Assembly: GCA_038885615.1 (NCBI GenBank)
Contig: JAVZZP010000001.1
Coordinates: 119,191 to 183,190 of the forward strand
Source of the DNA: Candidatus Pacearchaeota archaeon
Lineage (GTDB): Archaea; Nanobdellota; Nanobdellia; Pacearchaeales; GW2011-AR1
Length of the DNA stretch: 64,000 nt
Direction of reading: 5' to 3'
The notes under the pieces were generated by a model. That model had not been told where the DNA came from and did no database searches. It worked only from the letters and a program-made list of their open reading frames with translations. This document shows, in pieces, positions 4,647 to 54,814 of this stretch (its first letter is position 1; every line of letters begins with the position of its first letter). The translations under genes were made by a program, and so were the position numbers.

Positions 4647-4687
4647 CCTAAAAATATAAGAAAATATAACTATATAAAACTTTCTTT

Positions 4688-11943: not shown

Positions 11944-11993
11944 AGAGTTATAGAAAAAAATAGCTTTTTAAAACTTACTCATGGATAAAATAT

Positions 11994-12716: not shown

Positions 12717-12740
12717 AAAACAAATATTGCTGAAAAAAAG

Positions 12741-25643: not shown

Positions 25644-26102
25644 TTAACTTGTTAAGATCCTATCACACCTTTCACCATTAACAAAAGTTTCTTTTAAAGA
25701 TTTTTCCTGATTATAAGAAGTTGAATTTACCCTACTACAAACTCTTTTTTTGAAATCTGTTTCATCACCACAATCCTTAGCATTCTGGCTTATTTCCAGC
25801 CCTTCGCTGACAGCACCTTTTTTGATGAATTCATCAATATAATGACAACTTACAATCATCTCACCGCCTGCTTTCAAATTAACTTTTTTTTCAGAATTAC
25901 AATAAGAAGCTTGCTGCCTTTGAATTTCCAATCTACATGACTCAACAGCAACAGTTACAGTGGGGTCACTAGCATCAACTAGGTTTCCAGCAGTACTAAA
26001 AAATTTCCAAGAAAAGAAAACTACTGTACCAGCAACAACCAAAGCTAAAATTATAAAAATAATAACGTTACTTTCTTCGGCCCCTTTTTTGTTTTTTGAC
26101 AT
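25644..26102 (-). CDS. small secreted/anchored Cys-containing protein
   Basis: N-terminal TM/signal (VIIFIILALVVAGTVVFFSW); 152 aa; six Cys in the exported part. Confidence 0.4.
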   Translation of the reverse strand: MSKNKKGAEESNVIIFIILALVVAGTVVFFSWKFFSTAGNLVDASDPTVTVAVESCRLEIQRQQASYCNSEKKVNLKAGGEMIVSCHYIDEFIKKGAVSEGLEISQNAKDCGDETDFKKRVCSRVNSTSYNQEKSLKETFVNGERCDRILTS

Positions 26103-39223: not shown

Positions 39224-41980
39224 TCATAAAGGAAAAAAACTTTTTCTAGCTGTTACGACTAAAGAACAATCCGTTGGTTCATTCCCAAATTCATCCTTGC
39301 ATTTTATGTAGTATGTTTTATCGTTGTCCCAAGGAGAAACATGAACTCTTGATTTAGCAAAAGGCATATTTGTTCCTTCATTAAATAAATAGTCACAACT
39401 CTCTGTTGAATAAACACAATCAGAAATTCTATTAGTTTCTATTCTTAAATAATCATCGCTGTAAAAAGCTCTTGCTATAAGTGGTGGCGTCGTTACAATT
39501 TCAAGTTCAAATTCTCCTTCTGTTTCTGCTAAATTTCCTCCGGCATCAATGCATTTAACATAATATTTATGTCTTCCATCATAAAGATCTAATCTTTGAG
39601 TGCTTATACCGTCGGCTTTATTTGTATCAAAGAAAGGTATAAAGCTATTTGGATATCCGGTTAATGAGTAGAAGCATGTTGCTTTATTGTCGTTACAACC
39701 AAACAAAGTTTCAACCTTCAATTCAACTGAAAAAGGAGAAAATCCTCCCACAACTTTTGTGTTGTTTGGTGATATTGATTTTATTTTTAGAGGATTTGAA
39801 CCTCTCACAGAATATTTGAAAGATTGCATCATTTTATTTCTTTCTTTTTCCTCTAATCCAGGATTATCTTTACATCTTATATAGTAATCAGTTCCTTCTT
39901 TCTTTATGCCTATTAAGTTTGCTCTACAAGTGTATAGAAGCATAGAATTTATTTCAAAAACATTTTGTACACAGGACATATTGTAAGTCATTTCTTCAAA
40001 GTCCTTATCCTTAAAATCCCATCTGCATTCCGCAGGTTCATCAGTATAAAATTCAACAATAGAAGAGTTTTGATCTGCTGCTATACAATTTTCACTTTCT
40101 ATTGAAACTGCTTTTATTTGTGGGGGAGTGTTGTCTGGAGCATCATCAACACAAAATCTTACCGCATAAGGTGCTTGATTTACATTTCCTTGTGCATCTC
40201 TGCACATAATATATAAAGTCATTTCTTTGCCCATCTCTAAAGTTAAAGAAGAATTTTGCAAATCTTTTGCTCTTGGAACATGAAGAATTGCGGAGAAATT
40301 CTTTCTGTAAGTGCTGTCTTCATCCATATAAGAGAGCATTTCTTCAAAGGTGTTTTTCTTTTCCAAGTCTATCTTGCATTGAGCAGGTTCATTTGTTAAA
40401 ACACCAAATTGTATTGGTGAGAATGCCTTGATACAAGGATTCACATCCTGTCTAACTATTCTAAATCCAGGACCAGGAGGAGAGGTTCTTACATCTGTAT
40501 AAGCATAACCCTCTGTTAGTTTCTCATTCCACGGCATTATTATAGGGGGAGAAACCTCTCTCTTACTATTATCAACACATAACTCATTACCAGTTCCCTG
40601 ATTTACTAGGGCACAGGTTTGTCCTAGGGATTTGCAGCGATATTCAGAACAAGGCAAGCCATCTTGATTGCATAAATCACAATCCTCCCCCCCGTGAGGT
40701 GCCTGCCAAGGAAGACATTTAAATTCAACTTGCTCCTCAAAAGTTTTTGTCTTCTCATAATTTTTTACATAATACCACCAAGCGACTGCGGCACCAATGG
40801 CAACATGAAATGTTTTTGAACCAAGAAATTTAACAAACTTATTTTGAGAGCTAGTTAAATCAAACCAACCTCCTTCTCCTAAAACCTGCTGTGCTGTTTT
40901 AAATGAAATAACTCCTAAAAAAGCTGCTTCAGCAATAGAATCAACCATTTCTTGATTTTCTTTTGCAACAAAGCTTCCGGCTGCTTTAATAAAGCCCCCA
41001 ACTGCTATTGCCCAAGTAAGCCCTTCAACCAAATGCCCAATTCCACCATATTTAAAAATTGAAAGATTTGCTTTTTTAGCCCATTCGAAAGGATAATCAT
41101 CTCTTTTACCTGACCAATAACCCGTCTTTTTACCTTCTGGTGGATCTTGCGTCGGACTATCTCTTTCTCTTGACTCCTCACTTCCTCCTTTTCCATTATC
41201 GCTATTACTTCTATCAACCCGCAAAGCTGTTCCCCCCTTTGTTGGTGTTTGCGCCAAACTAGTAGACTTACTATTATGCACCAAAACCCCCTCGGCAAAA
41301 TACCATTTTCCGCCTAAATCCAAGTCAAAAACCTCAATTCCTTCTGGCTTTTCAACAATTTCAATTTTTTCAATGAAAACTTTTTTTCCGTCAATTCCCA
41401 AAAAATAATCGCTGACTTTTGCGTTGCCGACAGGCTGCCATTTTCCATTAAGCAAAACCTCGTGATTCGGAGTTATTTCAAGCTTGTCATTTATCTTTAA
41501 ATAAGAATATTTCTTTAAAACAATAACATTTCGCACAACCTCTTTTGTCAGCGCGCGCTTTTCAAAATCATAACTAAGCACCTCGTCGCCCGGCCTTATT
41601 TCTGAGATCGGCTTTGTTTGAAGGTTCGCGAGGGTGATGAGAGTTGAAGGAGTGAGACATGATGCTGGGTTTAATTTTCTATTGAGAATTGATACAACAT
41701 CTTCTTCATCAGAAATATCTACATCTTCTTCTATGTTTCGGCTTTCTCCTACCTGCCTATACCATTTATCACCTTGCTTATAATAAACAATAGACTTAAA
41801 AAGAGCGCTTCCAACAAAAGTATCTACGACAATAGTATCATCAGAGATTGTTTTATAATATTCTCTTATTTCCTGGTTATTTCCACTCGCCCTCTCCGCC
41901 ATTCCAATCATATAAGCAAAACTCACAATTCCCAAAATCATTAAAAACATCTGGCTGTAGGCGAGTGCGCACTTGTTCAT
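39224..41980 (-). CDS. giant secreted disulfide-rich surface protein (918 aa) with N-terminal mini-intein, glycine-zipper hydrophobic segment and four C-terminal ~105-aa tandem repeats
   Basis: N-terminal signal/TM (MFLMILGIVSFAYMIGMA). Hint domain at aa 108-236. Hydrophobic Gly/Ala-rich segment at aa ~311-405. C-terminal domain opens FKCLPWQAPHGGEDCDLCNQDGLPCSEYRCKSLGQTC, homologous to aa ~843-880 of the 1341-aa ORF. Four repeats each end in YY(I/V)(K/R)C(K/I)D..GN. 4-nt ATGA overlap with the upstream 774-aa ORF. Confidence 0.8.
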   Translation of the reverse strand: MNKCALAYSQMFLMILGIVSFAYMIGMAERASGNNQEIREYYKTISDDTIVVDTFVGSALFKSIVYYKQGDKWYRQVGESRNIEEDVDISDEEDVVSILNRKLNPASCLTPSTLITLANLQTKPISEIRPGDEVLSYDFEKRALTKEVVRNVIVLKKYSYLKINDKLEITPNHEVLLNGKWQPVGNAKVSDYFLGIDGKKVFIEKIEIVEKPEGIEVFDLDLGGKWYFAEGVLVHNSKSTSLAQTPTKGGTALRVDRSNSDNGKGGSEESRERDSPTQDPPEGKKTGYWSGKRDDYPFEWAKKANLSIFKYGGIGHLVEGLTWAIAVGGFIKAAGSFVAKENQEMVDSIAEAAFLGVISFKTAQQVLGEGGWFDLTSSQNKFVKFLGSKTFHVAIGAAVAWWYYVKNYEKTKTFEEQVEFKCLPWQAPHGGEDCDLCNQDGLPCSEYRCKSLGQTCALVNQGTGNELCVDNSKREVSPPIIMPWNEKLTEGYAYTDVRTSPPGPGFRIVRQDVNPCIKAFSPIQFGVLTNEPAQCKIDLEKKNTFEEMLSYMDEDSTYRKNFSAILHVPRAKDLQNSSLTLEMGKEMTLYIMCRDAQGNVNQAPYAVRFCVDDAPDNTPPQIKAVSIESENCIAADQNSSIVEFYTDEPAECRWDFKDKDFEEMTYNMSCVQNVFEINSMLLYTCRANLIGIKKEGTDYYIRCKDNPGLEEKERNKMMQSFKYSVRGSNPLKIKSISPNNTKVVGGFSPFSVELKVETLFGCNDNKATCFYSLTGYPNSFIPFFDTNKADGISTQRLDLYDGRHKYYVKCIDAGGNLAETEGEFELEIVTTPPLIARAFYSDDYLRIETNRISDCVYSTESCDYLFNEGTNMPFAKSRVHVSPWDNDKTYYIKCKDEFGNEPTDCSLVVTARKSFFPL
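41273..41659 (-). mobile_element. mini-intein / Hint domain (~129 aa, no homing-endonuclease domain) inside the 918-aa ORF
   Basis: Block A C-LTPSTLITLA with Cys1. Block B LEITPNHEVLL (T-x-x-H). Blocks F/G VFDLDLGGKWYFAEGVLVHN with terminal His-Asn, followed by +1 Ser (HN|S). Coordinates calculated from ORF start 41980: aa 108 to aa 236. Confidence 0.7.
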
Positions 41981-44301
41981 TTCTCCTCCACTAAAAATTT
42001 AATTCCTGTTCCATACTCTCCAAGAGATAGTCCTTCTTCTGAGCTTCCACCTGAAACAATTTTTTTGGGAATCTCTTTTCCAGCCAACTTCTCCCACATT
42101 TTCTGAGCAAAAGTTTTATCCTCTTTAATAACTGTTTGCTGCTTTATTTCTTGAGGAAAGCTTAGTTTTTCAACTCTGATTTCCTCTCCGTCACTTGCGA
42201 CAATTACATCACCCACTTTTATTTCTTCTATTTGCTTCAAAGAATATTTATCTTCTTTTTTTAATAAAACATAACTTCCTTTTCTAACCTCTATTCTGTC
42301 ATTAATTAAAATAGAATCCTTTCTTTCTTTAATTACAAATCCTGTTCCTCTTGTTTGATGGCCTTGTTTCAAATTTCCTAGCAAACTGAAAGAAGAATTT
42401 TTGTATTTCCAAGAATAACCATCATCTGTATATTTATCATTTATATTTACATTAGCACCGCAATCACCCAAGGAAGTACAAATTGCATTTACTTTTACTG
42501 CCCAATCGTGCTTTGGAATTAAAGAGTAACTTTTTGAGCTTCCCTTAGGAGGACTTCCTCCTTCCCATTCTAAACACTCGCTCGTTACCTCAACCCCGCT
42601 TTCATTTACCATCTTAAATTCATATTCTTTGTCTCCAAAAGGACCTGCAATACTAGAATATTTTTCGGTTCTTTCTATTATTACCTTGCAAACAGCAGAG
42701 GCCATATTGCAATTTCCTTCACCAAGCCAGAACTTATTTCCAGGAGGAATCAAAGGAACACAAAGACCTCCTTCATCAACCTCGCTTTTATTGAATTTAG
42801 TAACTTTATTCAGAATATCATAATCAAATTCCCATATTCCTTTGCCGCTTGAAACAAAAGGATTGAGTGCTTTTCCTGTAATAACCTTTCCCGTAGGATT
42901 AGTAAAAAAAGGTGCTGCTTGTTGAACAAGTCCTGCTGCTTGCATTGCTGTGTCTACTCCTGACTGTCCTCCAGAAGTTGGATTCTGAAAATAGGGGGTA
43001 GGATTAGAAAAGCTAGATGTTTGCTGTTGTGCTTTGTTCCAATTCAAACCTTCAACATCGTCTATCCAGATACAATCCCTAACATCAATATTTTCACAAT
43101 CTTTCTTTCTCCATTGATAAATACAATCTTGCCAGCGATTTACACGGCAGGCTGCTGTTGAAAATTCTCCTGCAGAAGTCTGAATTCCTGAATGAATGCA
43201 AATCTGTTTTCTATAATCCGCACAAGGATCTGTAACAACTTCTCCGTCTATGCAAATTTGCCTGAAATGCCTTGAACCAACTTTTTCATAACCTTTTCCT
43301 GGTTCAATATCATAAACACACCAGCTTTCTCCGTTTAAGCGGGTTTTTCCACTCATATCTTTACATGTTGTTTTTTTACAGATATACTCTCCTTCTTTTC
43401 CTAAATCTGTTGTTTTCTTTCCATCTTTTCTCGCACAAACACTTCCTAAAAGATAATCGCAGTTTCCACAACTATTACTGCCACCGCTTCTTGGACAAAT
43501 TTCATCTGGATCGGCAACTCTTCCGCGATTCCAAGATTTATCTTTGTCAGAAGAATAAACATTTTCCCTATTTCCACAAGAATCAAACCAATAAACTTTT
43601 CCTTTATAACAACCAACACTTGTTTGCCTAGCACACTCCGTATGTAACTCTTCGGCAGAGCATAGAACATCTTTGTAAAATTTCTTTCCTGTTTCTTGCT
43701 CTAGAATAGATTTATTAACATTTAAAGCAATTACCCCATCTTTTGCCCCACACTCTTTTCTAGTCGTAAATTTGCACTCATTAACTCCTGTTCCTGTATA
43801 GGTGACACAAGCCCCCATATCTTGAGAATTAGCTAAAAAAATACACTCGCCTTCATCTGTAACCGAAGCTCTGAAATCCATTGAAATTCCATAATAAGTA
43901 GAAAGTTTTTTACAACGGGCTAAAGTAACCAATGCTGCTTGGTCAGCAATAATACAACAACCTAAACGACAAGTAGGAATTTCTGAAGCTTTTTTCTCGC
44001 TCCAGGTTCCATTTCTGTCTTGACAAACCTGCTGAGGAACATTTTCCATGCAAAGACCCTCTTTAGAATCATAACAAGTTCCTGTTTTACAAAAAGAGGT
44101 TTGCTCACAGAAAGAGGGGGCAATTCTAAAAGACGAATCACATTCGCTCTCCGCGGAGTTTAAACAAGCTCCTCCTGATTTTGTTCTCTCGCAACAAACA
44201 GAAGGGGTTGAAAGTATGGCGGAAGATAAACTAAGAAGGAATGTTAAAAGAAATAAAATCAAAAATAATTCTTTTATCAATAAGATCCTGCGGATGGCCA
44301 T
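41977..44301 (-). CDS. giant secreted disulfide-rich surface protein (774 aa), paralog of the N-terminal ~560 aa of the 1341-aa ORF
   Basis: Signal peptide (LFLILFLLTFLLSLSSAILS). Shared blocks with the 1341-aa ORF: three C..GCC modules; VYWFDSCGNRENVY ~ VYFVDSCGNIANIY; SCGNCDYLLGSVC ~ SCGNCNYIGGSVC; NGESWCVYDIEPGKGYEKVGSRHF ~ HGESWCVYDINPLSGISPVGSRHF. About 60 Cys. Confidence 0.8.
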   Translation of the reverse strand: MAIRRILLIKELFLILFLLTFLLSLSSAILSTPSVCCERTKSGGACLNSAESECDSSFRIAPSFCEQTSFCKTGTCYDSKEGLCMENVPQQVCQDRNGTWSEKKASEIPTCRLGCCIIADQAALVTLARCKKLSTYYGISMDFRASVTDEGECIFLANSQDMGACVTYTGTGVNECKFTTRKECGAKDGVIALNVNKSILEQETGKKFYKDVLCSAEELHTECARQTSVGCYKGKVYWFDSCGNRENVYSSDKDKSWNRGRVADPDEICPRSGGSNSCGNCDYLLGSVCARKDGKKTTDLGKEGEYICKKTTCKDMSGKTRLNGESWCVYDIEPGKGYEKVGSRHFRQICIDGEVVTDPCADYRKQICIHSGIQTSAGEFSTAACRVNRWQDCIYQWRKKDCENIDVRDCIWIDDVEGLNWNKAQQQTSSFSNPTPYFQNPTSGGQSGVDTAMQAAGLVQQAAPFFTNPTGKVITGKALNPFVSSGKGIWEFDYDILNKVTKFNKSEVDEGGLCVPLIPPGNKFWLGEGNCNMASAVCKVIIERTEKYSSIAGPFGDKEYEFKMVNESGVEVTSECLEWEGGSPPKGSSKSYSLIPKHDWAVKVNAICTSLGDCGANVNINDKYTDDGYSWKYKNSSFSLLGNLKQGHQTRGTGFVIKERKDSILINDRIEVRKGSYVLLKKEDKYSLKQIEEIKVGDVIVASDGEEIRVEKLSFPQEIKQQTVIKEDKTFAQKMWEKLAGKEIPKKIVSGGSSEEGLSLGEYGTGIKFLVEEK

Positions 44302-45044
44302 GGGTAGCTTCTTACAGCAAAATTAAATTTAATTTTTTCATTTTTTTCTATAACTGAATATACCTTAGTATCATCATCTCTTCTCTCCTTTAAAATTTTT
44401 ATGTTAGGATAGTATAACATTTGCTGCATTTGTTCGCTATCACCATAATAAGTTTCAAATTGAATCAATGAAGTCGCTATCATCAATACCTCATATAAAT
44501 TTGTTTTATATTTGTAAGTCAGATCTTTTTTTGAAGAGGTTGTTTCACCGAAAGATAGTTTTATCGGAGCTTTAATTTTAACCTTAACTTCTTTTGGCTC
44601 TATAAAAACCTCGTAAGAGATTTCTCCTCTTTCTACATCAAGGCCTCTCTTCTGTAAATCTTTAATTGAATTCTCATAACATTTTTCAAAATCTTCTTTT
44701 ACTAACTCCTTTAGTGATTGCTCAAATCTATCTTTCAAGAAAGGCTCTTGGTTCACACACGGTTTTAAATATTCGTTTGTATAACAAAGAATAGTATAAT
44801 TTTCCCCCTTATACATATAAGTAAATTTTGGCTCAAGAACCCCTGCTTTTAAAGATAACTCCTGAATTTTCTTTGACAAAGAGCCGTCTAAACAATTTTC
44901 AAAGCCGCTTGTTCTAAAACCAAGACGATTAGTAATAGGTTTAATAAATTCTGGTTTCAGAGAATTGATGATAAAAAAAACTCCAAAAACTAAAATAATT
45001 CCTAAAATAATAAATAAAGCAACTTGCCCCCTTTTGTTTTTCAT
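44277..45044 (-). CDS. class-III signal peptide (archaeal type-IV-pilin-like) protein, 255 aa
   Basis: MKNKRGQVALFIILGIILVFGVFFII: basic n-region, G at -1, Q at +1, ~20-residue hydrophobic stretch, no Glu+5 (archaeal PibD/EppA-type substrate pattern). Paralog of 49080-49841 (shared C..PC pair, DxTKVY...K(I/F)(K/N)FA(I/V)R). Overlaps the downstream 774-aa ORF by 25 nt. Confidence 0.6.
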   Translation of the reverse strand: MKNKRGQVALFIILGIILVFGVFFIINSLKPEFIKPITNRLGFRTSGFENCLDGSLSKKIQELSLKAGVLEPKFTYMYKGENYTILCYTNEYLKPCVNQEPFLKDRFEQSLKELVKEDFEKCYENSIKDLQKRGLDVERGEISYEVFIEPKEVKVKIKAPIKLSFGETTSSKKDLTYKYKTNLYEVLMIATSLIQFETYYGDSEQMQQMLYYPNIKILKERRDDDTKVYSVIEKNEKIKFNFAVRSYPWPSAGSY

Positions 45045-45078
45045 ATTTTTTAAAGAAAAAATGTCTTTATAAATTCTT

Positions 45079-48000
45079 TTATTTTAGGTTTATTGGTTTG
45101 ACAGAAATACAAAACTTCTGTTCATTTAGTTTTTTGTCTCTGCATTTAATATAATAAGTTTCATAAGGATTTGCAGAAAAACTATGCGTTTTAGACAAAT
45201 ATTTAGTTGAAGAAGCATTTTGAATATCTCTTAAACTTTTTTCGCAAACTTCGGAATAATTTAAATGATAAAAACACTCTGCGTCCTCATCTGTTTGCAA
45301 GGACAATCTATTACCATCGTAAGCTGTTCTTACTATTATTGGTGGTTGTTCGTCGAAAAAAACCTGGAAATTAAAAGTTGTTTCGTTTATGTTTTTAGCT
45401 TCATCTTCACACTTAACATCAATAGAATATTTTCCTTGTGGCAGCATTAATAATTGACTATGTGCTGTCCCACCAGTTTCATAGAAGTTTATAAATCCGG
45501 AGGAAAAATTTTCAATTTTATAAGAGCAAATCGCATTTCCTAAGCAACCAGAAGTACTAACTGAAAGAGTGAAGTTTTTCTCTTCAATAAAAGTGTTTCT
45601 ATTAATAAGGTTTATATTTATGCCCTCTCTACAGACATTTAAGATGTATTCTTTACTATGAAGATTTGGATTTCTTTTATCAAATTCTGTTTCTTCGGTT
45701 AAGTCAGGTTTATCCTTGCATCTGAAATAAAATTTATTTTGTCCTTCTTCTAAATTTGATAAAAGTGTGAAGCACCTCCATTCTCCAAGGAAAACACTAT
45801 CTTGAGAGGTTAGACAAGTCATATTATTTGGCATTTTCTCGTAACCTTGCTCTCCTGTAACAACATCATATTCCTGGATAAATCTGCATTCTGCCGGCTC
45901 ATTAAGATATAAGATAACTGCGGTCGAATTTGTTCCTTTTTTTAGATAGCTTCCACTAGCAGGTTCAAATCTTTTTAATTCAGCCGGAGTTAAGTCGTAG
46001 CTATCTTTTACTTTTATCTGAACAACAAATTCTGCCTCGTTTACTTGGCCCGCAAAATTCATACATCTTATATAATATTCATTTTCCTCTCCAACAGATA
46101 AACCAAGAGTGTTTGTTGAAGCTGTTTTATCTCTTAAATAAGGAGAAAGAGTTATTTTATGGTGTGTGCCTTCTGCTTTCCCTGTTTGAGGATTTATTTC
46201 AGAAATCATCTCAAATTTCATTTCATCATAGTTTTTTGTGTGTTCATAATCTATCTTGCATGTTGCTGGTTTGTCTGTGATAATACCAAAAGTTAATTCT
46301 TGCCATGGTTCTACTCCGCCGCCATTTGGTCCAGCAATTCTAAATCCGTTGTCTCTTATGTTTGTATATGAGTTCCCCTGTGTTAAAATCTCTGGCCAAG
46401 GAGTTATTTTTGCCTGCCATATTTCATTAATTGTCGCACAATAGCCCGGTTCTCCTTTGTCAACAAAATAATGACATCTTGCTCCTAAAGATTTACATCT
46501 GTATTCAGAGCAGGGCCTTACATCCTCATTGCAAAGCTCGCATTGAGATTCTTTTGGAGGTTTCCAAGATTGGCAGGAGAATTGCATGATGAAATATTCT
46601 TGTTCTTCATATTCATCGAAAAAAGCTGTATAAATAGTGTAAACAATTGCAGCAGCAAGAACAATCCAACCAATTGGATTTGTAGCTAAGAGACCTCCTG
46701 CTGTAGCAAAAAATCCAGAACCTGAAGCTGCTGCAGATCCAAATCCAGTAGACAACCCAATTCCCACGGCAGCACCAACAGCAGCACCGACACTTGCCAT
46801 GAACATATTAAATTGATTTGATTTTCCAGGACTCCAATCCTGGTTTTTGGAAATTAATTTTCCAATTTGATAACCTACAACGGCCCCTACTGCTGCAGCA
46901 CCTAAGACATAACCTCCTGCAGCTAAACCCCCTTTAGAAAAAGCTACAGCTCCGGCCTCCAACCAAGTACTTCCAGTAATAACAGCCAAACTAGTCCCAT
47001 AAGTACCTATAACTCCTGATAAGGCACTAAACCCTCCCAACGCCATTAAACCACTAATTACCATTGCTCCAGTCATTACATCATCAAATCCTCCTCCATC
47101 TCCAGGATTAACATTAGCTTGGCTCGCTAGTTTATTCAAATCAATAACTCCGGTTTGTGGGTCTCCGATAGTTCCTGCCGTATCTCCCGCATCTGCTGTT
47201 AAACCACTTCCTCGCGAAGCGATATCTTTAAGAGATTTTATTTGAGAAATTGATTTTTTTATTGAAGAAATATAATCCTCTGATAAAGTATAATTTTCAC
47301 TTGAAACCTCTTTTTGTTTTCCGGTTTTATCTATTTTCATTCTTTTTACTGTAAAACCTATTGTTGCATTATCATTATTCACTTTCCCAACAATATTAGA
47401 TGAAACTCCGCAAGTTCCAATTGCACGACATCTTTCATTTAAAGCAGCCATTAAAGCAGGCAAATCTTTTGTTTTTATGTTTTGATTAACTCCATCTATA
47501 TTGCATTCCCAATTTCTTTCATGGTCTTTCCAATCACCACAACCTCCTGCGAGAGTGCAATCCCTATGTATTTGACTAATACAAACAAAACTTCCTAAAG
47601 AACAGACTGCTGTTGATTCGAATTCGCTTCCACCATAATTTGCAGAAGAAAGTGTCTTTTGTTGCTGACTAGAAGAAGTTTGACTTGCTTTTCCGACAGG
47701 TGCTTTTGTTGTCCAGAATTGAAAACCTGGAGTAAATCTTGGTACGCAATGAGCTAAAACTTTGTTTTGGTCTTTTCCTAAATCATCAATTGCTCCTTGT
47801 TCAGCATTTGTTTTTTCAGGATCAAAACCAGCAAGAAATTTGTCATCGCTTCTTTTTAATTTGTCTTCTCCATAAAACTCATTAAACATTATGCATTGAG
47901 GGTTTTCATCGCATTTTTGTTTTACCTGCTCATAAGATTCTGCATCATTTGCATTTAAACAAGAACGCCAATCATTTACTAAGCATTTAGCAGAAGTATA

Positions 48001-49104
48001 ACCAGAAGAGCTATCTGTATTTTGGGCACAAATTTCTTGCATAAAATCAGCACAACCTTCAATGGTAATTTGCTCTTCAAAACAACGAGCTATAAAATGC
48101 CTTGAACCTACTGGAGAAATGCCGCTTAAAGGATTAATATCATAAACACACCAGCTTTCTCCGTGTTTTCTTTCTCCGCAATGCAAACTTTTACAAACAT
48201 AATCTCCGAAAGTCGGTTTTGGAGTTTTTCCTTGTTCATATTTTGTGCAAACACTTCCGCCTATATAATTACAATTACCACAAGAAGGGCTTTCTGGAGA
48301 ACAAGAATTCTCTGGAGGAATTGGTTTTTCCCAATAGCTTTGATCATCTGCCTTAGAAGCATCGTAGATATTCGCTATGTTTCCGCATGAATCAACAAAA
48401 TAAACTTGGTCTTTATCTTCAACACAGGTTGTTTTCTTTGTAGGTTTGCAAACAGTTTTTAATTCTTTTGCAGTACATAAATAGCCTGGCTTAAAATCCC
48501 CTGTTTTGCAGTTTTTCTTAGAGGTATAAACACAATTTTTCTCACCTGAAAAATCGCCCGAATCTGAAAGACAAGCTCCCAGTTCTTCTAAACCGAAATA
48601 TTTTTCGCAGCTCTCTCCGCTAGCCAAAGGGACAAATTTTTTTTCAAAATTATACTTGTTTGCTAGCAGGGTGCATTCTCGAGAGTTAGTTAGAGAAACT
48701 TGTGTTCCTAAAATACAACAACCTAACTGACATTGTGGAATGTTGCAACTAGGACTATCACTCCAATTTCCTCCGTTCTCCAAACATTTTTGTTTTGGAG
48801 AGTTCATTGAGCAGGTTCCTGTCGAAGGCGAATAACAGCAACCAATTCTACACTCATCAACAGAAGAACAAGAAGTTAAAAAAAGATTCTCCTTGCATAT
48901 GTCTGACTGAAAAAAAGGAATTTCTTGACAGATTGCTCCTTCTTTTGTTTCACGACAGCAACCCTTAATAGAGTCCTGTTGTGCAGAAACAATTTTTATA
49001 TCCTTTTCCGAAATTAAATAGGCAAAACTGAAAATAGCCAAAACCATTAAACTTATTTCTAAAGTTGCTATTTTCTTTTTCATATTCCGGCAGGCATTAC
49101 ACAA
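45079..49104 (-). CDS. giant secreted disulfide-rich surface protein (1341 aa), the unsplit form of the 774+918 pair
   Basis: Signal peptide (IATLEISLMVLAIFSFAYLI). N-terminal ~560 aa homologous to the 774-aa ORF. Gly/Ala-rich hydrophobic segment at aa ~672-829 (GAMVISGLMALGGFSALSGVIG...AAVGAVVGYQIG...VGAAVGAAVGIGLSTGFGSAAASGSGFFATAGGLLA...). C-terminal ~500 aa homologous to the 918-aa ORF C-terminus (FSCQSWKPPKESQCELCNEDVRPCSEYRCKSLGARC; four YY.(K/R)C.D repeats). No intein. Confidence 0.8.
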   Translation of the reverse strand: MCNACRNMKKKIATLEISLMVLAIFSFAYLISEKDIKIVSAQQDSIKGCCRETKEGAICQEIPFFQSDICKENLFLTSCSSVDECRIGCCYSPSTGTCSMNSPKQKCLENGGNWSDSPSCNIPQCQLGCCILGTQVSLTNSRECTLLANKYNFEKKFVPLASGESCEKYFGLEELGACLSDSGDFSGEKNCVYTSKKNCKTGDFKPGYLCTAKELKTVCKPTKKTTCVEDKDQVYFVDSCGNIANIYDASKADDQSYWEKPIPPENSCSPESPSCGNCNYIGGSVCTKYEQGKTPKPTFGDYVCKSLHCGERKHGESWCVYDINPLSGISPVGSRHFIARCFEEQITIEGCADFMQEICAQNTDSSSGYTSAKCLVNDWRSCLNANDAESYEQVKQKCDENPQCIMFNEFYGEDKLKRSDDKFLAGFDPEKTNAEQGAIDDLGKDQNKVLAHCVPRFTPGFQFWTTKAPVGKASQTSSSQQQKTLSSANYGGSEFESTAVCSLGSFVCISQIHRDCTLAGGCGDWKDHERNWECNIDGVNQNIKTKDLPALMAALNERCRAIGTCGVSSNIVGKVNNDNATIGFTVKRMKIDKTGKQKEVSSENYTLSEDYISSIKKSISQIKSLKDIASRGSGLTADAGDTAGTIGDPQTGVIDLNKLASQANVNPGDGGGFDDVMTGAMVISGLMALGGFSALSGVIGTYGTSLAVITGSTWLEAGAVAFSKGGLAAGGYVLGAAAVGAVVGYQIGKLISKNQDWSPGKSNQFNMFMASVGAAVGAAVGIGLSTGFGSAAASGSGFFATAGGLLATNPIGWIVLAAAIVYTIYTAFFDEYEEQEYFIMQFSCQSWKPPKESQCELCNEDVRPCSEYRCKSLGARCHYFVDKGEPGYCATINEIWQAKITPWPEILTQGNSYTNIRDNGFRIAGPNGGGVEPWQELTFGIITDKPATCKIDYEHTKNYDEMKFEMISEINPQTGKAEGTHHKITLSPYLRDKTASTNTLGLSVGEENEYYIRCMNFAGQVNEAEFVVQIKVKDSYDLTPAELKRFEPASGSYLKKGTNSTAVILYLNEPAECRFIQEYDVVTGEQGYEKMPNNMTCLTSQDSVFLGEWRCFTLLSNLEEGQNKFYFRCKDKPDLTEETEFDKRNPNLHSKEYILNVCREGININLINRNTFIEEKNFTLSVSTSGCLGNAICSYKIENFSSGFINFYETGGTAHSQLLMLPQGKYSIDVKCEDEAKNINETTFNFQVFFDEQPPIIVRTAYDGNRLSLQTDEDAECFYHLNYSEVCEKSLRDIQNASSTKYLSKTHSFSANPYETYYIKCRDKKLNEQKFCISVKPINLK

Positions 49105-49841
49105 GTGCGAATTGCAAATTTAATTTCTTTTTTAGAATCTCCGGCTGAATTTAAAATATAAACTTTAGTAGAGTCACCACCGCGAAATCTATCAATTTTA
49201 ACATCACGGTTCATTGCTTGCCAAACCATTAAATCAAATTCACAAAATGTTGATTCATAATTATTTATTGTCTCGGCAGTTCTTAGAAGAGCTGGAAGAG
49301 ATGATTTAAAGTTTCCTTTTAGATTTGAAATAGAAAGAGATGACTCCCCCTTGGAAAGATGAATATTTGTTTTAAAATCAAATGAAATTTGTTTTTCTTC
49401 AAAAATTAAATTAAAGGAATAATCTTCATATAAAAAAGAATACCCTTTTTTATCATAATTCTCCTTAATTGTTAATAAACATCTAGATAGATCCCTAGAA
49501 ACCTTATTTTCAATCTTTCTTCTTACTGACTCAATAAACAAAGGAGATTGTTGAACACAAGGAAAATAAAACTCAGAGGTAAAGCAAGAAAAAGGTACTC
49601 TTTCTCCACGATAAACATAAAAAACCTTAAACTCTTCTAAAAATTGTTTTTCTTTAAAAAAATTTTCTTCGTGCTTTTTTATAGAGTCTAAAATACAACT
49701 TCTTATGTCTAAAGAAGGGTCTTCTATGCTTTTTTTACTAAAGATAACCTCTGGTTTGATAAAAAAAAATAAAAAAACTGAAAAAAGAAGAATAATTCCA
49801 AGAATAATGAATAATACTGCTTGACCTCTTTTATTTCTCAT
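49080..49841 (-). CDS. class-III signal peptide (archaeal type-IV-pilin-like) protein, 253 aa
   Basis: MRNKRGQAVLFIILGIILLFSVFLFFFI: same KRG|Q + hydrophobic architecture as 44277-45044. Overlaps the 1341-aa ORF by 25 nt. Start lies 20 nt from the stop of the upstream DAC gene. Confidence 0.6.
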   Translation of the reverse strand: MRNKRGQAVLFIILGIILLFSVFLFFFIKPEVIFSKKSIEDPSLDIRSCILDSIKKHEENFFKEKQFLEEFKVFYVYRGERVPFSCFTSEFYFPCVQQSPLFIESVRRKIENKVSRDLSRCLLTIKENYDKKGYSFLYEDYSFNLIFEEKQISFDFKTNIHLSKGESSLSISNLKGNFKSSLPALLRTAETINNYESTFCEFDLMVWQAMNRDVKIDRFRGGDSTKVYILNSAGDSKKEIKFAIRTCVMPAGI

Positions 49842-49861: not shown

Positions 49862-50479
49862 CTATTTAAACTTATTTTTAATATATTTCTTAAAAAAGTA
49901 ATAAGGAACACCTAAAAGAATTATCCCGGGAACAACAGCAATCCCTAAGCCTGGAGCTAAAGCGGAAACTCCAATTGTTGAGAGTGTTCCAACACCAACA
50001 CTTTCCAAAATTTCATTTGCTTCTCTGACCTTTTTTTCAACATTTTTTTCAAGCGCATCTATTTGAACAGTTATCTTTCCTTGCCTAAAAATTTTTATTT
50101 TCTTCTCTTCTTGAGAAATTAAAACAGATAAGCTATCTTTTTCCAAGGAGGCCGAATATGCCGCCGCGTGCCTTGTGCCATACTCTCTAAAAACTCTTTT
50201 TGACTCAATCTTGGCTCCGTAATCTACAACCATTCCTTCCTTGTTTATTATTACCGCTCCATCTATTATTGCTAAAGATAAAAGAATTTTTTTTGCTCCT
50301 GGCTCAAAAATAGAAAAAGGCTCAAATCTCTGCTTCAGCATTTTTTTATACTTACAATTATCTGAAACAACAAACAAGGCTCCCTCCCCTTTTTTTGCTA
50401 TATCAATACCTACAGAAATAAGCAATTCCTCTATTTTTTTTATTTTTTTGATGGATCTATCTGTCATTTTAAAAATCAA
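49862..50479 (-). CDS. diadenylate cyclase (DAC-domain, c-di-AMP synthase) with C-terminal transmembrane segment
   Basis: GALFVV...IDGAVIINKEGMVVDYGAKI...GTRHAAAYSASLEKDSLSVLISQEEKKIKIFRQGKI matches the DAC signature (GALIV...DGAVII...GTRHRAA...DS..IVVSEE.G.IS). C-terminal GVGTLSTIGVSALAPGLGIAVVPGIILLGVPYYFF is hydrophobic. ATGA overlap with PCNA upstream. Confidence 0.7.
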   Translation of the reverse strand: MIFKMTDRSIKKIKKIEELLISVGIDIAKKGEGALFVVSDNCKYKKMLKQRFEPFSIFEPGAKKILLSLAIIDGAVIINKEGMVVDYGAKIESKRVFREYGTRHAAAYSASLEKDSLSVLISQEEKKIKIFRQGKITVQIDALEKNVEKKVREANEILESVGVGTLSTIGVSALAPGLGIAVVPGIILLGVPYYFFKKYIKNKFK

Positions 50480-51195
50480 TCATTATCAACTCTTGGAGCG
50501 AGAATAAAAGAAATACCCAAACTGTCTCCTGGAAAAACAAGTTTTAAAGGATAATTATCAGAAAACATAATTTTTACCTTTTCAGAAATTTTAGCGGCTT
50601 TTATAAATTTCATTAAATATTCAAGAGAATATTTGGCTCTTGCCCCGCCTTTGAATTCATAATTAGAAGGAAAATCGACCTTAACAGAACTTAAAGAACC
50701 TTTCGCTTCTATTCTAAAAAAACCATCTTTAACGGAAAAAGAACATGAATCTGCAACAACGTAGCAATCTTCTATTGTTCTTGAAAAGTCTTGTGAAGAA
50801 ATCTCTCCTTCAACTGAGAATTCCAAAGAAGGCTCCTTTTTTTCTTCAATGTCTGTTTCTATTAAAGAAAGATTGAAAGTTCTCTTTGACGAATCCTCCA
50901 AGGAAATTTTTAGTGTATTTTCATCTCTTTCAAATTCAACAAAATCAGAGTTATAGGCCCTTTTTAAAATCCTTTTTAAGTCTTCTAAATTAACAGCCAA
51001 TTCGTCATTTTCTGCTTCATAAATTGCAAAACTCTCTTTTGGAACCTTAAAAATAACCATTGCAACATTTGCAGGATCAACCGCACTTAAAGAAAGCCCT
51101 TCTTCTAAAAACTTTAATTTTACTTCTACAACTAATTCAGAAATTATATTAAGTGCGTCAATAAAAGATTTTGGATTTTCTAGTTTAATCTTCAT
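50476..51195 (-). CDS. pcn: DNA polymerase sliding clamp PCNA
   Basis: 239 aa; N-terminus MKIKLENPKSFIDALNIISELVVEVKLKFLEEGLSLSAVDPANVAMVIFKVPKESF typical of archaeal PCNA; two-domain length. Confidence 0.8.
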   Translation of the reverse strand: MKIKLENPKSFIDALNIISELVVEVKLKFLEEGLSLSAVDPANVAMVIFKVPKESFAIYEAENDELAVNLEDLKRILKRAYNSDFVEFERDENTLKISLEDSSKRTFNLSLIETDIEEKKEPSLEFSVEGEISSQDFSRTIEDCYVVADSCSFSVKDGFFRIEAKGSLSSVKVDFPSNYEFKGGARAKYSLEYLMKFIKAAKISEKVKIMFSDNYPLKLVFPGDSLGISFILAPRVDND

Positions 51196-51279
51196 ATAAT
51201 AGAATTTATTTAAACATTTATAAAGATTATTATTTGAAAAAGTAGGAATTTATTTAAATAAACCTATATAAAAAAGAAC

Positions 51280-52773
51280 ATGGAAGAAGAGGATAAAAAG
51301 ATAAATTTTATTTGTTTAAACCATTATTCAAAAAAGGAAATCCAGAATGCCATTTTTGATTTTTGCAAACACCGAGAAACAATACCCCTATACAAAGAAT
51401 TTTTTGGAAAAAGGCCTGACTGCTTAGAATATCCAGGTGATATTTACGAATTGGCAAAAAAAGGAGCTACTAGCTTCCATTGTTCTCAAGAAATTTGGAA
51501 AAACCCCTTAGAAATAGAAAAAGATTCTCAAAAAAAGGTTCTAGACGAAAAAAGAGAAGGATGGGACTTTCTTATTGATATTGATTCAAAATATTTTGAC
51601 TATGCAAAAATTTCTGCTATTATAATAGTAAAAGCACTAAAACACTTTGGCATAAAGAATTTTGGAATAAAATTTTCTGGCAGTAAAGGTTTTCATATAA
51701 TAGTTCCGTGGGCTGCCTTTCCAGAAGAAGTTAATGGAATAAAAACAAAGGATATGTTTCCAGAGTGGCCAAGATTAATAGCTCAATATCTACAAGAAGA
51801 GTTTATTAAAAAAAATCTAGAAAAAGAGCTTATTAAAATAACAAATAAAGATTATGAAAAAGAAATTATCTTTTCGCCTAAAAAAGAAAAAGCGATAGAA
51901 GGCATTCTATGTGAACATTATTGCGAAAAATGTGGGACGAAAACAACTAACATCTTAGAGAAAAATAGCAAAAAAAGAGTTTTTAGATGTCCAGTAAAAA
52001 ACTGCAATAGTCTAATGAAAAAAATAAATGAAGAAAAAATTTATTTATCTCCTGACAAAAAGTTTAATTCTCATAAGAATCCACAACTTTTCGAAGAAAA
52101 AATAAAAATAGAAAAAGATATTAATTCGGTTGATTTAGTTTTAGTCTCTTCTAGACATTTGTTTAGAACACCTTATTCCCTGCATGAAAAAACTGCCCTC
52201 TGTTCTGTTGTTTTAGAAGAAAAAGAGTTAGAAGAATTTTATCCTAACAAAGCAAAACCATCTAATATATTAATAAAAAACTTTTATCCGGAAACTGAAA
52301 AAGATGAAGCAAAAAGACTGCTTATAAATGCATTGGATTGGTCCCAGAAAAAAGAAAAAGAAGAAAAAAAATATTCCGAAATAAAAAGTATAAACCTTGA
52401 CGGAGTAAAAATTGATGAGAATTATTTTCCGCCTACAATAATGAAAATTCTTGAAGGAATAAAAGAAGATGGAAGAAAAAGGGCCCTAACAATTCTACTC
52501 TCTTTTTTTGTTTCCCTGAACCTTCCGAAGGAATACATTGAAGAAAAAATCTCTGAGTGGAATAAAAAAAATTATCAACCCCTAAAAGAAGGTTATATAA
52601 GGTCGCAAATAGAATGGTTCTTAAAAAATAAGAGGATGCCGCCCAATTATGACAAACCAATCTATCGAGAGCTAGGTGTTTTGATGGAAACAAACAATTT
52701 AAAAAATCCTATAAATTACACAATAAGAAAGATATTCAAAGAAAAAAATAAAAAAGAAAAGCTTAATAAATAG
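51280..52773 (+). CDS. priS: DNA primase small catalytic subunit PriS fused to a PriL-CTD-like C-terminal domain (no Fe-S cysteines)
   Basis: PriS catalytic motifs IDIDSKYFD and FSGSKGFHIIVPW, plus a Zn-ribbon (CEHYCEKCG...RCPVKNC). C-terminal ~150 aa carries YFPPTIMKILEGIKEDGRKRALTILLSFFVSLNLP, the PriL-CTD FPPC(I/M) region with Cys replaced by Thr. Confidence 0.7.
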   Translation: MEEEDKKINFICLNHYSKKEIQNAIFDFCKHRETIPLYKEFFGKRPDCLEYPGDIYELAKKGATSFHCSQEIWKNPLEIEKDSQKKVLDEKREGWDFLIDIDSKYFDYAKISAIIIVKALKHFGIKNFGIKFSGSKGFHIIVPWAAFPEEVNGIKTKDMFPEWPRLIAQYLQEEFIKKNLEKELIKITNKDYEKEIIFSPKKEKAIEGILCEHYCEKCGTKTTNILEKNSKKRVFRCPVKNCNSLMKKINEEKIYLSPDKKFNSHKNPQLFEEKIKIEKDINSVDLVLVSSRHLFRTPYSLHEKTALCSVVLEEKELEEFYPNKAKPSNILIKNFYPETEKDEAKRLLINALDWSQKKEKEEKKYSEIKSINLDGVKIDENYFPPTIMKILEGIKEDGRKRALTILLSFFVSLNLPKEYIEEKISEWNKKNYQPLKEGYIRSQIEWFLKNKRMPPNYDKPIYRELGVLMETNNLKNPINYTIRKIFKEKNKKEKLNK

Positions 52774-52791
52774 CTTATTTTTATAAGAGAT

Positions 52792-54759
52792 ATGGCAAAG
52801 AAAGGGGGAAAAATATTTTTTTTTGTAAATAGTATAGTTTTATTTTTACTTCTTCTGAATATCGCTATTTCACAAAATAATACAACATCTACAAATTCTT
52901 CTCAGGTCTCGCAACAACAAAACATAACTCAAAACAAAACAACGGTTGATAAGGCCTATGAGTGTTTAGAAAAAGAATTAAAAGATGATTGTTCTGGTGC
53001 AATAACGATACAACAACTGGCTTTTTCTATAATGGCTACTCCAAAAACAGATATACTTAGAAAATGTGTAGATAGGCTTAAAGCAAAAGAAAAAACCGAA
53101 GGTTGTTTTGGAGATTCTTCTTGTACAATAAAAGATACTGCTTTAGCGATTCTTGCATTAGATCATATTAAAGAGAATACCACAAAATATGAAAACTGGT
53201 TGCTCTCAAAAAATTTAAGTACAACAGAAGTTGAATGGATATTTCAACACGACTCTTCTAATGAAACAACATGTACTTTAAAATACGATGGGAATGACTA
53301 TCAATTTACTGCAAAAAATGATAAGAAATTAACTGGAAATTTTGGGTCTTGCTTTAGCCCAATATATCAAAACTATTGGCTTAGAATAAACGAAGATTGT
53401 TTAAACAAAGAGATAAAAATAGGATGTAATCAAAAATCGTCAATTTCTTTTATCTACAGAACTCCGGGCTCTTCGAAAATAAATGTTCTTTCAAACACAA
53501 AAGAAATTGTCCAAAACTCTGAAACAAGCTTTAAAATAGATTCTAAATGTTTTGGGATTGATAGCTGCAACTATGAGGACAATGTCTGGGCTGTATTGGC
53601 TCTTATGAGAAAAGGGCATAACATTAAAGATAACATTCCTTATATAATCACGACAGAAGAAAATAATAGGCAATATTTTTCTGAAGTTTTCTCTTATATA
53701 TTAACAAATTACGATAGAATTTATGGAGAGAAAATAATGAAAATGCAAACAGATGAAAAATATTGGGAGGCAGAAAACAGCTATTATGGAAAATATTATG
53801 ATACTGCTTTGGTTCTTTTAGCAATGGGGCACTTAAATCAAAAACAAATAGTCGATGCAAAAAATTGGGTTTGGTACTCTCAAGAAAGTAATGGGTGCTG
53901 GAATTCTAAAAACATAAGAGATAGTGCATTTTTATTATGGGCTACTCAAAGAAAAACATCTCCACAACCTAATACCTCACAGCCAAATACTACCAATGTT
54001 ATAACTACAACAAGATGCGACCAAGGGCCTGCTGGAGCTAGCTGTATAAGACAAGCAGAATGCCTAGAAAATGCAGGAAGAGTTTTAACTTCATATGATT
54101 GCAGTTATAGCCCCATTTCCTTTTCCGTATGTTGTAATATAACACCTGTCCTAAAATCATGCTCTGAACTAAATGGAAAAATTTGTTCTCAAAATGAAAT
54201 TTGTAGCGGTATTGAAAAAAATTCTACTAATGGAAAGTGTTGCTTGGGGGAGTGCAGACAAAATATTGCTCCTCGATCAAAACCTGAAGAAGAAGATAAG
54301 TGCAAGCTTGCTGGTGGAACATGTAGAACAAAATGCGGAAATGACCAAGAAGAAATAAGTGAAGATTGTTCTGACAGCTCAAAAGTTTGTTGTGTTAAAA
54401 AAACTTCTCCATCTTCGACTACAAAGAAAAATCTTTTGTGGTTATGGATTTTGCTTGGAATTTTGATTGTTTTAGTAATAATTGGAATTTTAATGAAAGA
54501 TAAAATAAAAGTAATGCTCTACAAAAAATCAAATAAGGATAGCGGTCAGAAACCTATCTTTGGCAGTGGAATTAGGCCGGCTAAACCAGGATTTCCGCCT
54601 ATAAGCGGACCACCCCGACCAATGGTTCCTGCAAGACCCCTCTTAGGTGTACCTCCAAGAACTGCACCAGGTGTTGAAAATAGGCCCCAGCCACCGATAG
54701 CTGCTAGGCCCCAGCAAAGACCTGCTGTGTTTGATAAACTAAAAGAGATATCTAAGTAA
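52792..54759 (+). CDS. secreted, C-terminally TM-anchored surface protein with alpha/alpha-toroid (prenyltransferase/squalene-oxidase-like) repeats, Cys-rich stalk and Pro-rich cytoplasmic tail
   Basis: Signal peptide. Recurrent (D/N)(T/S)A(L/F)x(I/L)LA(L/M) motifs (DTALAILAL, NVWAVLAL, DTALVLLAM, DSAFLLWA). Cys-rich C-terminal modules (CCLGEC, CKLAGGTCRTKCG..CC). TM LLWLWILLGILIVLVIIGILM. Pro/Arg-rich tail; no thioester CxEQ motif. Confidence 0.55.
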   Translation: MAKKGGKIFFFVNSIVLFLLLLNIAISQNNTTSTNSSQVSQQQNITQNKTTVDKAYECLEKELKDDCSGAITIQQLAFSIMATPKTDILRKCVDRLKAKEKTEGCFGDSSCTIKDTALAILALDHIKENTTKYENWLLSKNLSTTEVEWIFQHDSSNETTCTLKYDGNDYQFTAKNDKKLTGNFGSCFSPIYQNYWLRINEDCLNKEIKIGCNQKSSISFIYRTPGSSKINVLSNTKEIVQNSETSFKIDSKCFGIDSCNYEDNVWAVLALMRKGHNIKDNIPYIITTEENNRQYFSEVFSYILTNYDRIYGEKIMKMQTDEKYWEAENSYYGKYYDTALVLLAMGHLNQKQIVDAKNWVWYSQESNGCWNSKNIRDSAFLLWATQRKTSPQPNTSQPNTTNVITTTRCDQGPAGASCIRQAECLENAGRVLTSYDCSYSPISFSVCCNITPVLKSCSELNGKICSQNEICSGIEKNSTNGKCCLGECRQNIAPRSKPEEEDKCKLAGGTCRTKCGNDQEEISEDCSDSSKVCCVKKTSPSSTTKKNLLWLWILLGILIVLVIIGILMKDKIKVMLYKKSNKDSGQKPIFGSGIRPAKPGFPPISGPPRPMVPARPLLGVPPRTAPGVENRPQPPIAARPQQRPAVFDKLKEISK

Positions 54760-54814
54760 AAATTGAAAAAATTCCTAAATAAAAACTTTATTAAGTTAAA
54801 AAGATAGACATTGT

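Follow-up and report, generated by a model that had tools for sequence, protein, structure and literature searches.

The question raised by five closely packed genes of Candidatus Pacearchaeota is what kind of surface structure a small protein with a pilin-like start and a giant cysteine-rich partner might form together. The genes lie in a 64,000-nucleotide stretch of DNA, here called the window (NCBI GenBank assembly GCA_038885615.1, contig JAVZZP010000001.1, positions 119,191 to 183,190 of the forward strand), and make up two cassettes, each pairing a small protein (A) with a giant one (G), the second giant being encoded as separate N-half and C-half genes (G2N and G2C). An earlier note on this DNA, written from the sequence, had suspected a DPANN archaeon with a duplicated apparatus for host attachment; the organism is indeed a Candidatus Pacearchaeota, represented by a metagenome-assembled genome. 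The locus is a real, deeply conserved gene cluster of the Pacearchaeota and Woesearchaeota. Its preferred interpretation, to which a probability of roughly 50% is given, is a core, lineage-wide, membrane-anchored surface complex of A:G pairs, proposed for cell-cell or host contact. The evidence set out below establishes the structure of the genes, their homology, conservation and synteny, the limits of the domains and the lack of known folds; the topology, the formation of A:G complexes, autoprocessing by a Hint domain in G2C and the contact function are what we infer from it.

The five co-directional open reading frames (ORFs) called in the note were confirmed, coordinates and strand included, in the order A1-G1-A2-G2N-G2C:

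A1, 49841-49080, minus strand: small protein of 253 amino acids (aa) with a class-III-type N-terminus and a disulfide-containing alpha/beta domain
G1, 49104-45079, minus strand: intact giant protein, 1341 aa long if started at TTG and 1334 aa if started at the ATG at 49083
A2, 45044-44277, minus strand: 255-aa paralog of A1 and partner of the split cassette
G2N, 44301-41977, minus strand: 774-aa N-half gene with signal peptide, Cys-rich N-domain and a tail termed X
G2C, 41980-39224, minus strand: 918-aa C-half gene carrying the Hint domain

The 25-nt overlaps between these frames are a product of taking the longest-ORF starts. When the ATG start used by NCBI is adopted (P0001, 1334 aa), the A1/G1 junction becomes an ATGA overlap with the A1 stop; the G2N/G2C junction is also ATGA, with GGAGG in front, and the A2/G2N junction can be read as TTGA. 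Junctions of this type would be typical of translational coupling. The note had further claimed that the two pilin-like proteins are paralogs and that the 774-aa and 918-aa ORFs correspond to the N half and the C half of the 1341-aa ORF. Formal pairwise alignment (BLASTP) found the similarity to be real in each case, with 31% identity between A1 and A2 over their full length (E 1e-32), 31% between residues 49-412 of G1 and 36-418 of G2N (E 2e-53) and 31% between residues 814-1332 of G1 and 393-905 of G2C (E 8e-60), and the conserved motifs that the note listed, GCC modules and YY repeats, were located in G1. Since A and G would be translationally coupled and are co-duplicated one to one, the most likely arrangement is a specific A:G complex at the cell surface.

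The same genes are found far beyond this genome. The G family has more than 250 homologs, nearly all of 1200-1430 aa and all annotated as hypothetical; a scan of GTDB species representatives returned at least 578 loci, and the titles of all 76 fetched loci (76/76) name Pace-, Woese- or Nanoarchaeota or just an 'archaeon'. The A family comprises 523 representatives at E<=1e-30 in a profile search of 1.84 billion representatives, and the best-scoring 150 of the 523 are nearly all 238-292 aa long, with three longer members of 311-331 aa. Gene order was analysed by annotation with hidden Markov models (HMMs) and clustering of 1133 ORFs from 81 loci, and a recurring arrangement emerged: f14< f8< primase< PCNA (with a 63-aa helix-turn-helix, HTH, gene), one or two A-G pairs, A-GN-(X)-GC, p4 p5 p6 p7, HVO_A0114< and an S-layer protein, where GN and GC are the N-half and C-half genes. 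The commonest full pattern is A-G-A-GN-GC-p4, and A-G-A-GN-GC is seen in dozens of Pacearchaeota and Woesearchaeota genomes. An A gene stands directly upstream of 110 of the 134 GN-bearing genes and overlaps 68 of those 110; across about 80 related loci the genes are tightly linked, not scattered, in agreement with the linkage that the note expected in relatives.

Downstream, p4-p7 are four further families of small proteins with class-III-type N-termini (for example KKGQEEMVGFVLIV), and in at least 15 loci the cluster ends with an S-layer gene (S_layer_C). L001 and L006, the nearest relatives, keep p4-p6 after GC, and the window holds the left part of the conserved cluster, with a MutS-like gene following G2C. 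Identity to the L006 orthologs is 79% for PCNA, 70% for primase, 80% for G2N, 74% for A2, 65% for G1, 62% for A1 and 59% for G2C, so that G and A appear to evolve about as slowly as PCNA and primase.

G1 begins with a Sec-type signal (family consensus K-K...hydrophobic...VSA), after which three regions can be told apart:

G1 N-domain, 47380..48969, minus strand: approximately residues 46-575 (~530 residues), Cys-rich
G1 Gly/Ala-rich membrane region, 46615..47079, minus strand: approximately residues 676-830
G1 C-domain, 45082..46575, minus strand: residues 844-1341

The N-domain opens with three GCC mini-modules of about 40 residues (GCC at residues 48, 88 and 128), includes the conserved blocks HGESWCVYD and VGSRHF, shows about 45 invariant Cys, Gly or Trp columns in the family alignment and is followed by a low-complexity linker. 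G1 as a whole has 68 Cys, most of them invariant. The AlphaFold2 model of the N-domain (mean pLDDT 83.9) had no fold match in the PDB or BFVD, and the three-domain class II fusion fold (fusexin/HAP2) was not found in it. Profiles of the G and GC families gave nothing significant against PDB sequences, and no vWA, beta-propeller (PilY1/Neisseria PilC) or DUF2341 domain was detected in G by Pfam, NCBIfam, PDB profile or structure search.

The C-domain starts with a CxxCN..PCSEYRCKSLG knot and continues with four repeats, each with a conserved Cys pair, whose YY.[KR]C.[DN]-type motifs lie at residues 1010, 1125, 1228 and 1317 of G1. The bacterial Ig-like model Big_13 recognises 14 members of a set of 20 from the C-half family at E<=0.01 (best 3e-6), and G1 itself gives only sub-threshold matches to Ig-like models, Y_Y_Y (0.02) and Big_3_3 (0.19); the C-domain is accordingly described here as four predicted Ig-like repeats. 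Elsewhere in the window, at 20501-21469 on the plus strand, a 322-aa protein with a DsbA/Thioredoxin_4-like domain is encoded, which could be the oxidoreductase for the disulfides of G and A.

The small proteins were called pilin-like in the note on account of their N-termini. Class-III (FlaFind-type) signals consist of a short positive leader ending in [KR][GA], then Q, A or similar, and a hydrophobic stretch of about 20 residues. Both A1 (MRNKRG followed by QAVLFIILGIILLF) and A2 (MKNKRG followed by QVALFIILGIILVF) carry such a motif, and [KRS..][GAS]Q with a hydrophobic stretch is present in 134 of 147 A proteins from the fetched loci, with a median leader of 11 aa. An AlphaFold2 model of A1 (pLDDT 88) consists of an N-terminal helix at residues 4-27, a floppy linker at 30-37 and an alpha/beta domain. 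This domain had no clear structural match, and the A-family profile found nothing significant among PDB sequences. 'Pilin-like' therefore refers to the N-terminal motif only, since no curated pilin model matches A. A stand-alone 152-aa protein at 25644-26102 (minus strand) also has a class-III-type N-terminus, MSKNKKGAEESNVIIFIILALVVAG, through which alone it matches the A-family HMM, so the genome has at least one further prepilin-type protein. The note's impression that the locus matches no named system was borne out: scans of all five proteins with Pfam, NCBIfam, PHROGs and PADLOC yielded nothing useful beyond the Hint matches in G2C, and the searches of the PDB and BFVD were equally negative.

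Between the two disulfide-rich domains, G1 has four uncharged hydrophobic segments, at about residues 678-700, 728-750, 768-790 and 808-829, which are conserved in the family (hydropathy; 23-sequence alignment). Because their number is even, both disulfide-rich domains would be on the same side of the membrane, outside the cell. In the note, a Gly/Ala-rich hydrophobic segment was ascribed to both copies; this holds for G1, where it is strongly hydrophobic, but in G2C the region that stands in its place is only amphipathic or weakly hydrophobic by hydropathy.

Such a region could also belong to a pore or bridge device, in which the glycine zipper of G would insert into the membrane of the partner cell or form a channel in that of the producer, giving a cytoplasmic bridge for the uptake of lipids and metabolites by DPANN cells, with GN and GC providing recognition. 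The Gly/Ala-rich, multi-segment region does resemble glycine-zipper membrane-insertion segments, the amphipathic region of the split copy is as expected for insertion on demand, and the function is apparently core and conserved; there are also non-significant matches to a type VI secretion system (T6SS) effector family (NCBIfam E 0.011) and to the type III secretion system (T3SS) translocator AopB (E 0.49). Every one of these similarity scores is at noise level, however, and four hydrophobic segments beside a Sec signal are more simply read as ordinary transmembrane helices, which makes a pore quite improbable.

Under the preferred interpretation of an anchored A:G complex, A would be a small protein with a prepilin-type N-terminus and G a Sec-exported giant, held in the membrane by its four-segment Gly/Ala-rich region and displaying two disulfide-bonded ectodomains, an N-domain without a known fold and a C-domain of four Ig-like repeats. 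Module 1 (A1-G1) would be the intact form and module 2 (A2-G2N-G2C) a stable two-gene version, in which the N-domain of G2N is exported as a separate soluble subunit and probably re-associates with the membrane-proximal C-half through its X domain, and in which the Hint domain just after the G2C signal peptide most likely autoprocesses the exported precursor in this subclade. Joined by the S-layer protein and the four additional pilin-like proteins that relatives encode directly downstream, the A:G complex would constitute a core surface machine for cell-cell or host contact. A role of the cassette in host contact is plausible because Pacearchaeota have been reported to be strongly host-attached in size-fraction data (bioRxiv 10.1101/2020.05.14.094862) and because ectodomains of the Ig-like and Cys-rich kinds are typically seen in binding proteins.

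Several observations weigh against this interpretation. The predicted topology of G comes from simple hydropathy, and the weakly hydrophobic region of G2C makes the membrane anchoring of this protein less certain. A1 and A2 have no Pfam match at E<=1 and nothing relevant in NCBIfam, so that no pilin model fits them, and p4-p7 match neither Pfam nor curated pilin models. HMM searches found no p4-p7 in the 64-kb window, from which the S-layer gene is absent too, and a Pfam survey of its roughly 45 ORFs found no prepilin peptidase, pilus assembly ATPase or TadC; according to one paper, DPANN genomes lack the components of type IV pili. Finally, evolutionary rates like those of core genes are more in keeping with a conserved machine or ligand than with a host-specific adhesin engaged in an arms race.

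In part, the same evidence would fit a purely structural role, in which A, G and p4-p7 do housekeeping work as builders or anchors of the S-layer and the cell envelope, with neither a filament nor host recognition. An S-layer gene closes the conserved cluster, which is apparently near-universal in the lineage and evolves at rates like those of PCNA and primase, no pilus machinery is linked to it and G has a membrane anchor of its own. Against this, class-III-type N-termini in five families of small proteins suggest that these are processed or assembled as prepilins are, a simple anchor would not usually come with a detachable N-domain and in two or three paralogous cassettes per genome, and the Ig-like repeats and large Cys-rich ectodomains are of a kind typical of binding proteins. 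A purely structural role is considered somewhat unlikely.

As regards assembly machinery elsewhere in the lineage, a T2SSE-family ATPase is encoded approximately 5 kb upstream of A-G in two Woesearchaeota, at 3055-4833 (minus strand) in L020 and at 4049-5788 (minus strand) in L028 (Pfam E 6e-90 and 6e-94, respectively). It is solitary, adjoins a Kae1-like gene and lies outside any pilus operon; its proximity to A-G in these two loci makes pilus-type assembly possible in the lineage. Within the window, a run of small ORFs (259, 212, 220, 189 and 88 aa) occupies 397-3827 on the minus strand; most of them have hydrophobic segments, either at the N-terminus or internally. The four largest gave nothing significant against Pfam (for the 220-aa ORF, only E>=0.05), and none of the run matched the p4-p7 HMMs.

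The second cassette raises the further question of whether it is a working system or a broken one. The note described it as a copy that had been split into two ORFs, the second of which had acquired a signal segment and an intein. Paralogous cassettes with an N-half and a C-half gene are indeed present, but the split reaches far beyond this locus and appears to be the conserved, ancestral state. In L001 the orthologs of G2N (52% identical over the full length) and G2C (46%) form an intact GN/GC pair despite the insertion of MNT/HepT and ParE genes between the halves. Of 131 complete GN domains, 122 agree with their nearest relative from another locus in being full-length or split, and the split GN proteins form a coherent orthologous group. 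Because the same gene order recurs in dozens of genomes, the split of the last cassette appears, from these comparisons, to be ancient, maintained and ancestral across the Pacearchaeota and Woesearchaeota, rather than a sign of decay. In contrast to most lineages, which have GN plus GC, a few genomes have an unsplit G2-type gene of 1287-1385 aa (L003 at 10001-13864, and the second G gene of L024, L029 and L035), which may be either ancestral or re-fused.

Two further domains are found in the split cassette of this genome:

X domain, 42004..42246, minus strand: G2N residues 686-766, with the motif LKQIEEIKVGDVIVASDGEEIRVEKL
Hint domain, 41273..41659, minus strand: G2C residues 108-236, 129 aa

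G2N has no membrane region and ends in the X tail, which matches the family fam21 (HMM E 1.2e-11). In five loci X is a separate small secreted ORF between GN and GC, and in yet other genomes it is the N-terminus of GC. A domain that may be fused to GN, free-standing or fused to GC acts as a 'Rosetta stone' and speaks for GN and GC working together. The possibility that the G2N tail and the G2C N-terminus are the two parts of a split intein was ruled out, as the G2C Hint domain is complete and the G2N tail has no Hint match; when X was considered as a degenerate Hint fragment, hhalign gave it a weak score against the Hint domain (probability 19%).

In G2C, a signal resembling that of G1 is followed by 75 aa of variable sequence and then by the Hint domain, after which come a low-complexity linker, the amphipathic region and the predicted Ig-like C-domain. 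The signal and the Hint domain correspond to what the note had recognised in the second half, which has its own signal-like N-terminus resembling that of G1; the part that needs qualifying is its identification as an intein. By Pfam the domain lies at approximately residues 106-237 (Vint 28.8 bits against a cutoff of 27; Intein_splicing, Hint and PT-HINT sub-threshold), and its exact limits are C108...VLVHN236, followed by S237. It has Cys1, TPNH (block B), DLDLGGKWYFAEGVLVHN (blocks F/G) and Ser at +1, and no endonuclease is present within its 129 aa. Nine of about 25 C-half proteins carry the domain, all at the same relative position, and none of the 120 best full-length G homologs does, so that it is restricted to a small subclade. 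Among the nine orthologs the catalytic blocks of an intein are retained (Cys1 in 7/9, TPNH in 9/9, HN in 9/9, Ser+1 in 8/9), and the domain is kept even where Cys1 or Ser+1 has been lost (P0144, P0160).

Canonical inteins occupy a conserved site and are no better conserved than their exteins. The G2C Hint domain does not behave in this way: it is 67-87% identical among orthologs, compared with an identity of 39-75% in the C-domain and of about 33% in the flanks, and its site is hypervariable in sequence and length, the upstream stretch including the signal peptide ranging from 45 to 138 aa. Its closest PDB sequences are BIL2 (6Y75/6TMM, E 1e-4), Vint (8R2C, 4e-3) and Hedgehog (1AT0, 0.05), and the true intein Pho RadA gives only E 0.47. 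It is neither an A-type bacterial intein-like (BIL) domain, which has no +1 nucleophile, nor a B-type one, which has an atypical C-terminal motif, as HN is followed by Ser in 8/9. BIL domains have been described in hypervariable regions of non-conserved proteins (PMC7765530).

The variable site, the high conservation and the kinship with BIL2, Vint and Hedgehog favour retained autoprocessing over a selfish intein, and a domesticated autoprocessing Hint domain appears at least as likely as a selfish one. It would process the exported precursor by cleavage or splicing, and true splicing is chemically possible given the full set of intein residues including Ser+1. To our knowledge, classical inteins would not be expected in exported archaeal proteins. 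In L001 a small signal-bearing ORF (18242-18766) lies just upstream of the Hint-carrying GC and ends in an orphan Hint start motif, CLTPQTQIFVPYLSNGEYLSDEKLEELN; its counterpart is fused in frame to GC in P0145 and P0160, no equivalent occurs in the window, and it may be a remnant of a partial duplication.

Recent pseudogenisation of the second copy is contradicted by the comparative data. A broader form of the same idea, that copy 2 is a decaying, broken duplicate and its Hint domain a selfish mini-intein of no use to the host, could draw on the presence of every canonical class-1 intein residue (Cys1, TxxH, HN, Ser+1) and on the patchy distribution among C-half orthologs, which is typical of inteins. 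It is nonetheless very unlikely, as the split has been kept across dozens of species with both halves intact and a GGAGG-preceded ATGA junction, and as the Hint domain sits without an endonuclease in a hypervariable region, is better conserved than its host protein, persists without Cys1 or Ser+1 and has its closest solved relatives outside the inteins.

The remaining question is whether the cassettes belong to the chromosome proper. On the left they are flanked by the following genes:

DAC-domain protein, 49862-50479, minus strand: between PCNA and A1 (Pfam), with a C-terminal hydrophobic tail
PCNA, 50476-51195: left flank of the cluster (Pfam)
Primase, 51280-52773: left flank of the cluster (Pfam)
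f8, 52792-54759, plus strand: secreted protein of 655 aa
f14, 54815-56077, plus strand: secreted protein of 420 aa

The stretch 49862-56077 corresponds to the conserved left flank, since the order f14< f8< primase< PCNA ... A G is found in dozens of loci. Just downstream of G2C are genes for SerRS, endonuclease III and the MutS-like ATPase, and elsewhere in the window are those for RFC, AspRS, PheRS, SRP54, GatD, PPDK and the DsbA-like thioredoxin; the window is ordinary chromosome. The DAC-domain protein is a candidate c-di-AMP synthase, and most relatives have the 63-aa HTH gene or nothing at that position. f8 and f14 neighbour primase/PCNA in 21 and 9 loci, respectively; f8 is Cys-rich, with a weak, sub-cutoff match to squalene-cyclase-like repeats (E 7e-4), a C-terminal transmembrane helix and a Pro-rich tail.

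Toxin-antitoxin pairs (NTP_transf_2/HepT or MNT/HepT, sometimes ParE) have been inserted repeatedly inside the cluster, on either side of GN (next to A or next to GC); at least 11 loci show this, for example L001 (17079-18245), L004, L013, L023, L046, L069, L070, L074 and L079, and the A/GN/GC spot looks like a tolerated insertion hot spot. The G+C content is 0.36-0.38 within the G genes (40001-44000 and 46001-48000) and about 0.30 elsewhere in the window, a rise that probably reflects their Cys/Gly/Ala-rich composition rather than a foreign origin. The toxin-antitoxin pairs and the raised G+C are what could suggest that an integrated virus, plasmid or defence island carries the cassette as cargo. 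The synteny with PCNA, primase and other housekeeping genes is stable across the lineage, however, there are neither integrase genes nor repeats, PHROGs and PADLOC return nothing save a marginal match to the Hint domain, and composition accounts for the G+C shift. A viral or defence origin was rejected, and carriage by a mobile element of any kind is extremely improbable.

Pacearchaeota and Woesearchaeota are abundant, ultra-small, metabolically minimal archaea, and we know of no cultured representative. The literature searched contained neither an explanation of the way in which they attach to other cells or exploit them nor a description of the A and G families. The cluster encodes the largest secreted proteins of its neighbourhood and does so lineage-wide, which makes these proteins targets for antibodies, cryo-electron tomography (cryo-ET) labelling, structures and binding assays. 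Furthermore, it offers a clean natural case of a giant surface protein long kept as two genes with a 'Rosetta-stone' linker domain, and a candidate case of an exported archaeal protein in which a Hint domain with the full chemistry of an intein is at work. In a bolder version of the contact proposal, which must be considered distinctly unlikely, the A/G cassettes and the four downstream pilin-like proteins would be an unrecognised, lineage-defining nanomachine for a physical, possibly channel-forming connection to the host, with a new Cys-rich fold recognising the host, the glycine-zipper bundle serving as the conduit and the domesticated Hint domain maturing or coupling the split subunit outside the cell.

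Among known systems, the closest parallels in layout are the operons of minor pilins and large adhesins, such as fimU-pilVWXY1 in bacteria and, in archaea, pilus loci that include large DUF2341 'PilY-like' proteins, some of these loci having cysteine-rich components (Makarova et al. 2016, PMC4858521). In both, small prepilin-type proteins are encoded beside a very large protein with a Sec signal, and four further pilin-like genes follow the cassette in relatives. The present cluster differs in having no homology to PilY1, DUF2341 or pilin models, in the multi-segment membrane region of G and the dedicated A partner of each G, and in having no linked assembly ATPase, TadC or peptidase, with the p4-p7 set absent from the window. 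The G2C Hint domain resembles those of BIL, Vint, Hedgehog (Hog-Hint) and PT-HINT proteins in lying where a secreted or surface protein is hypervariable, as described for BIL domains (PMC7765530). It is unlike them in being archaeal, in keeping the full intein set including Ser+1 and in its position, which is near the N-terminus and directly behind a signal peptide instead of in front of a toxin or signalling domain at the C-terminus.

As in Ig-like repeat adhesins (Big_13, Big_3, SiiE-type), the C-domain of G would be made of tandem beta-sandwich-type repeats, here with a YY.[KR]C.D..GN motif. There are only four of them, however, each disulfide-stapled, and they are joined to a membrane region and a 530-residue Cys-rich domain. 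The SPEARE proteins of Nanohaloarchaeota are very large secreted proteins of an episymbiotic DPANN archaeon that have been proposed for host interaction. G is likewise a very large secreted protein of DPANN archaea but shares no domain with them, as Pfam finds no protease, nuclease or laminin-type domain in G, and it is far more conserved, paired and duplicated. The prepilin-type small proteins, the Ig-repeat surface protein and the Hint domain belong to known kinds. No description was found in the literature searched of the fold of the G N-domain, the A:G pairing, the conserved split with its wandering linker domain or the cluster in its entirety, and there is a modest chance that they represent a new type of host-contact machine.

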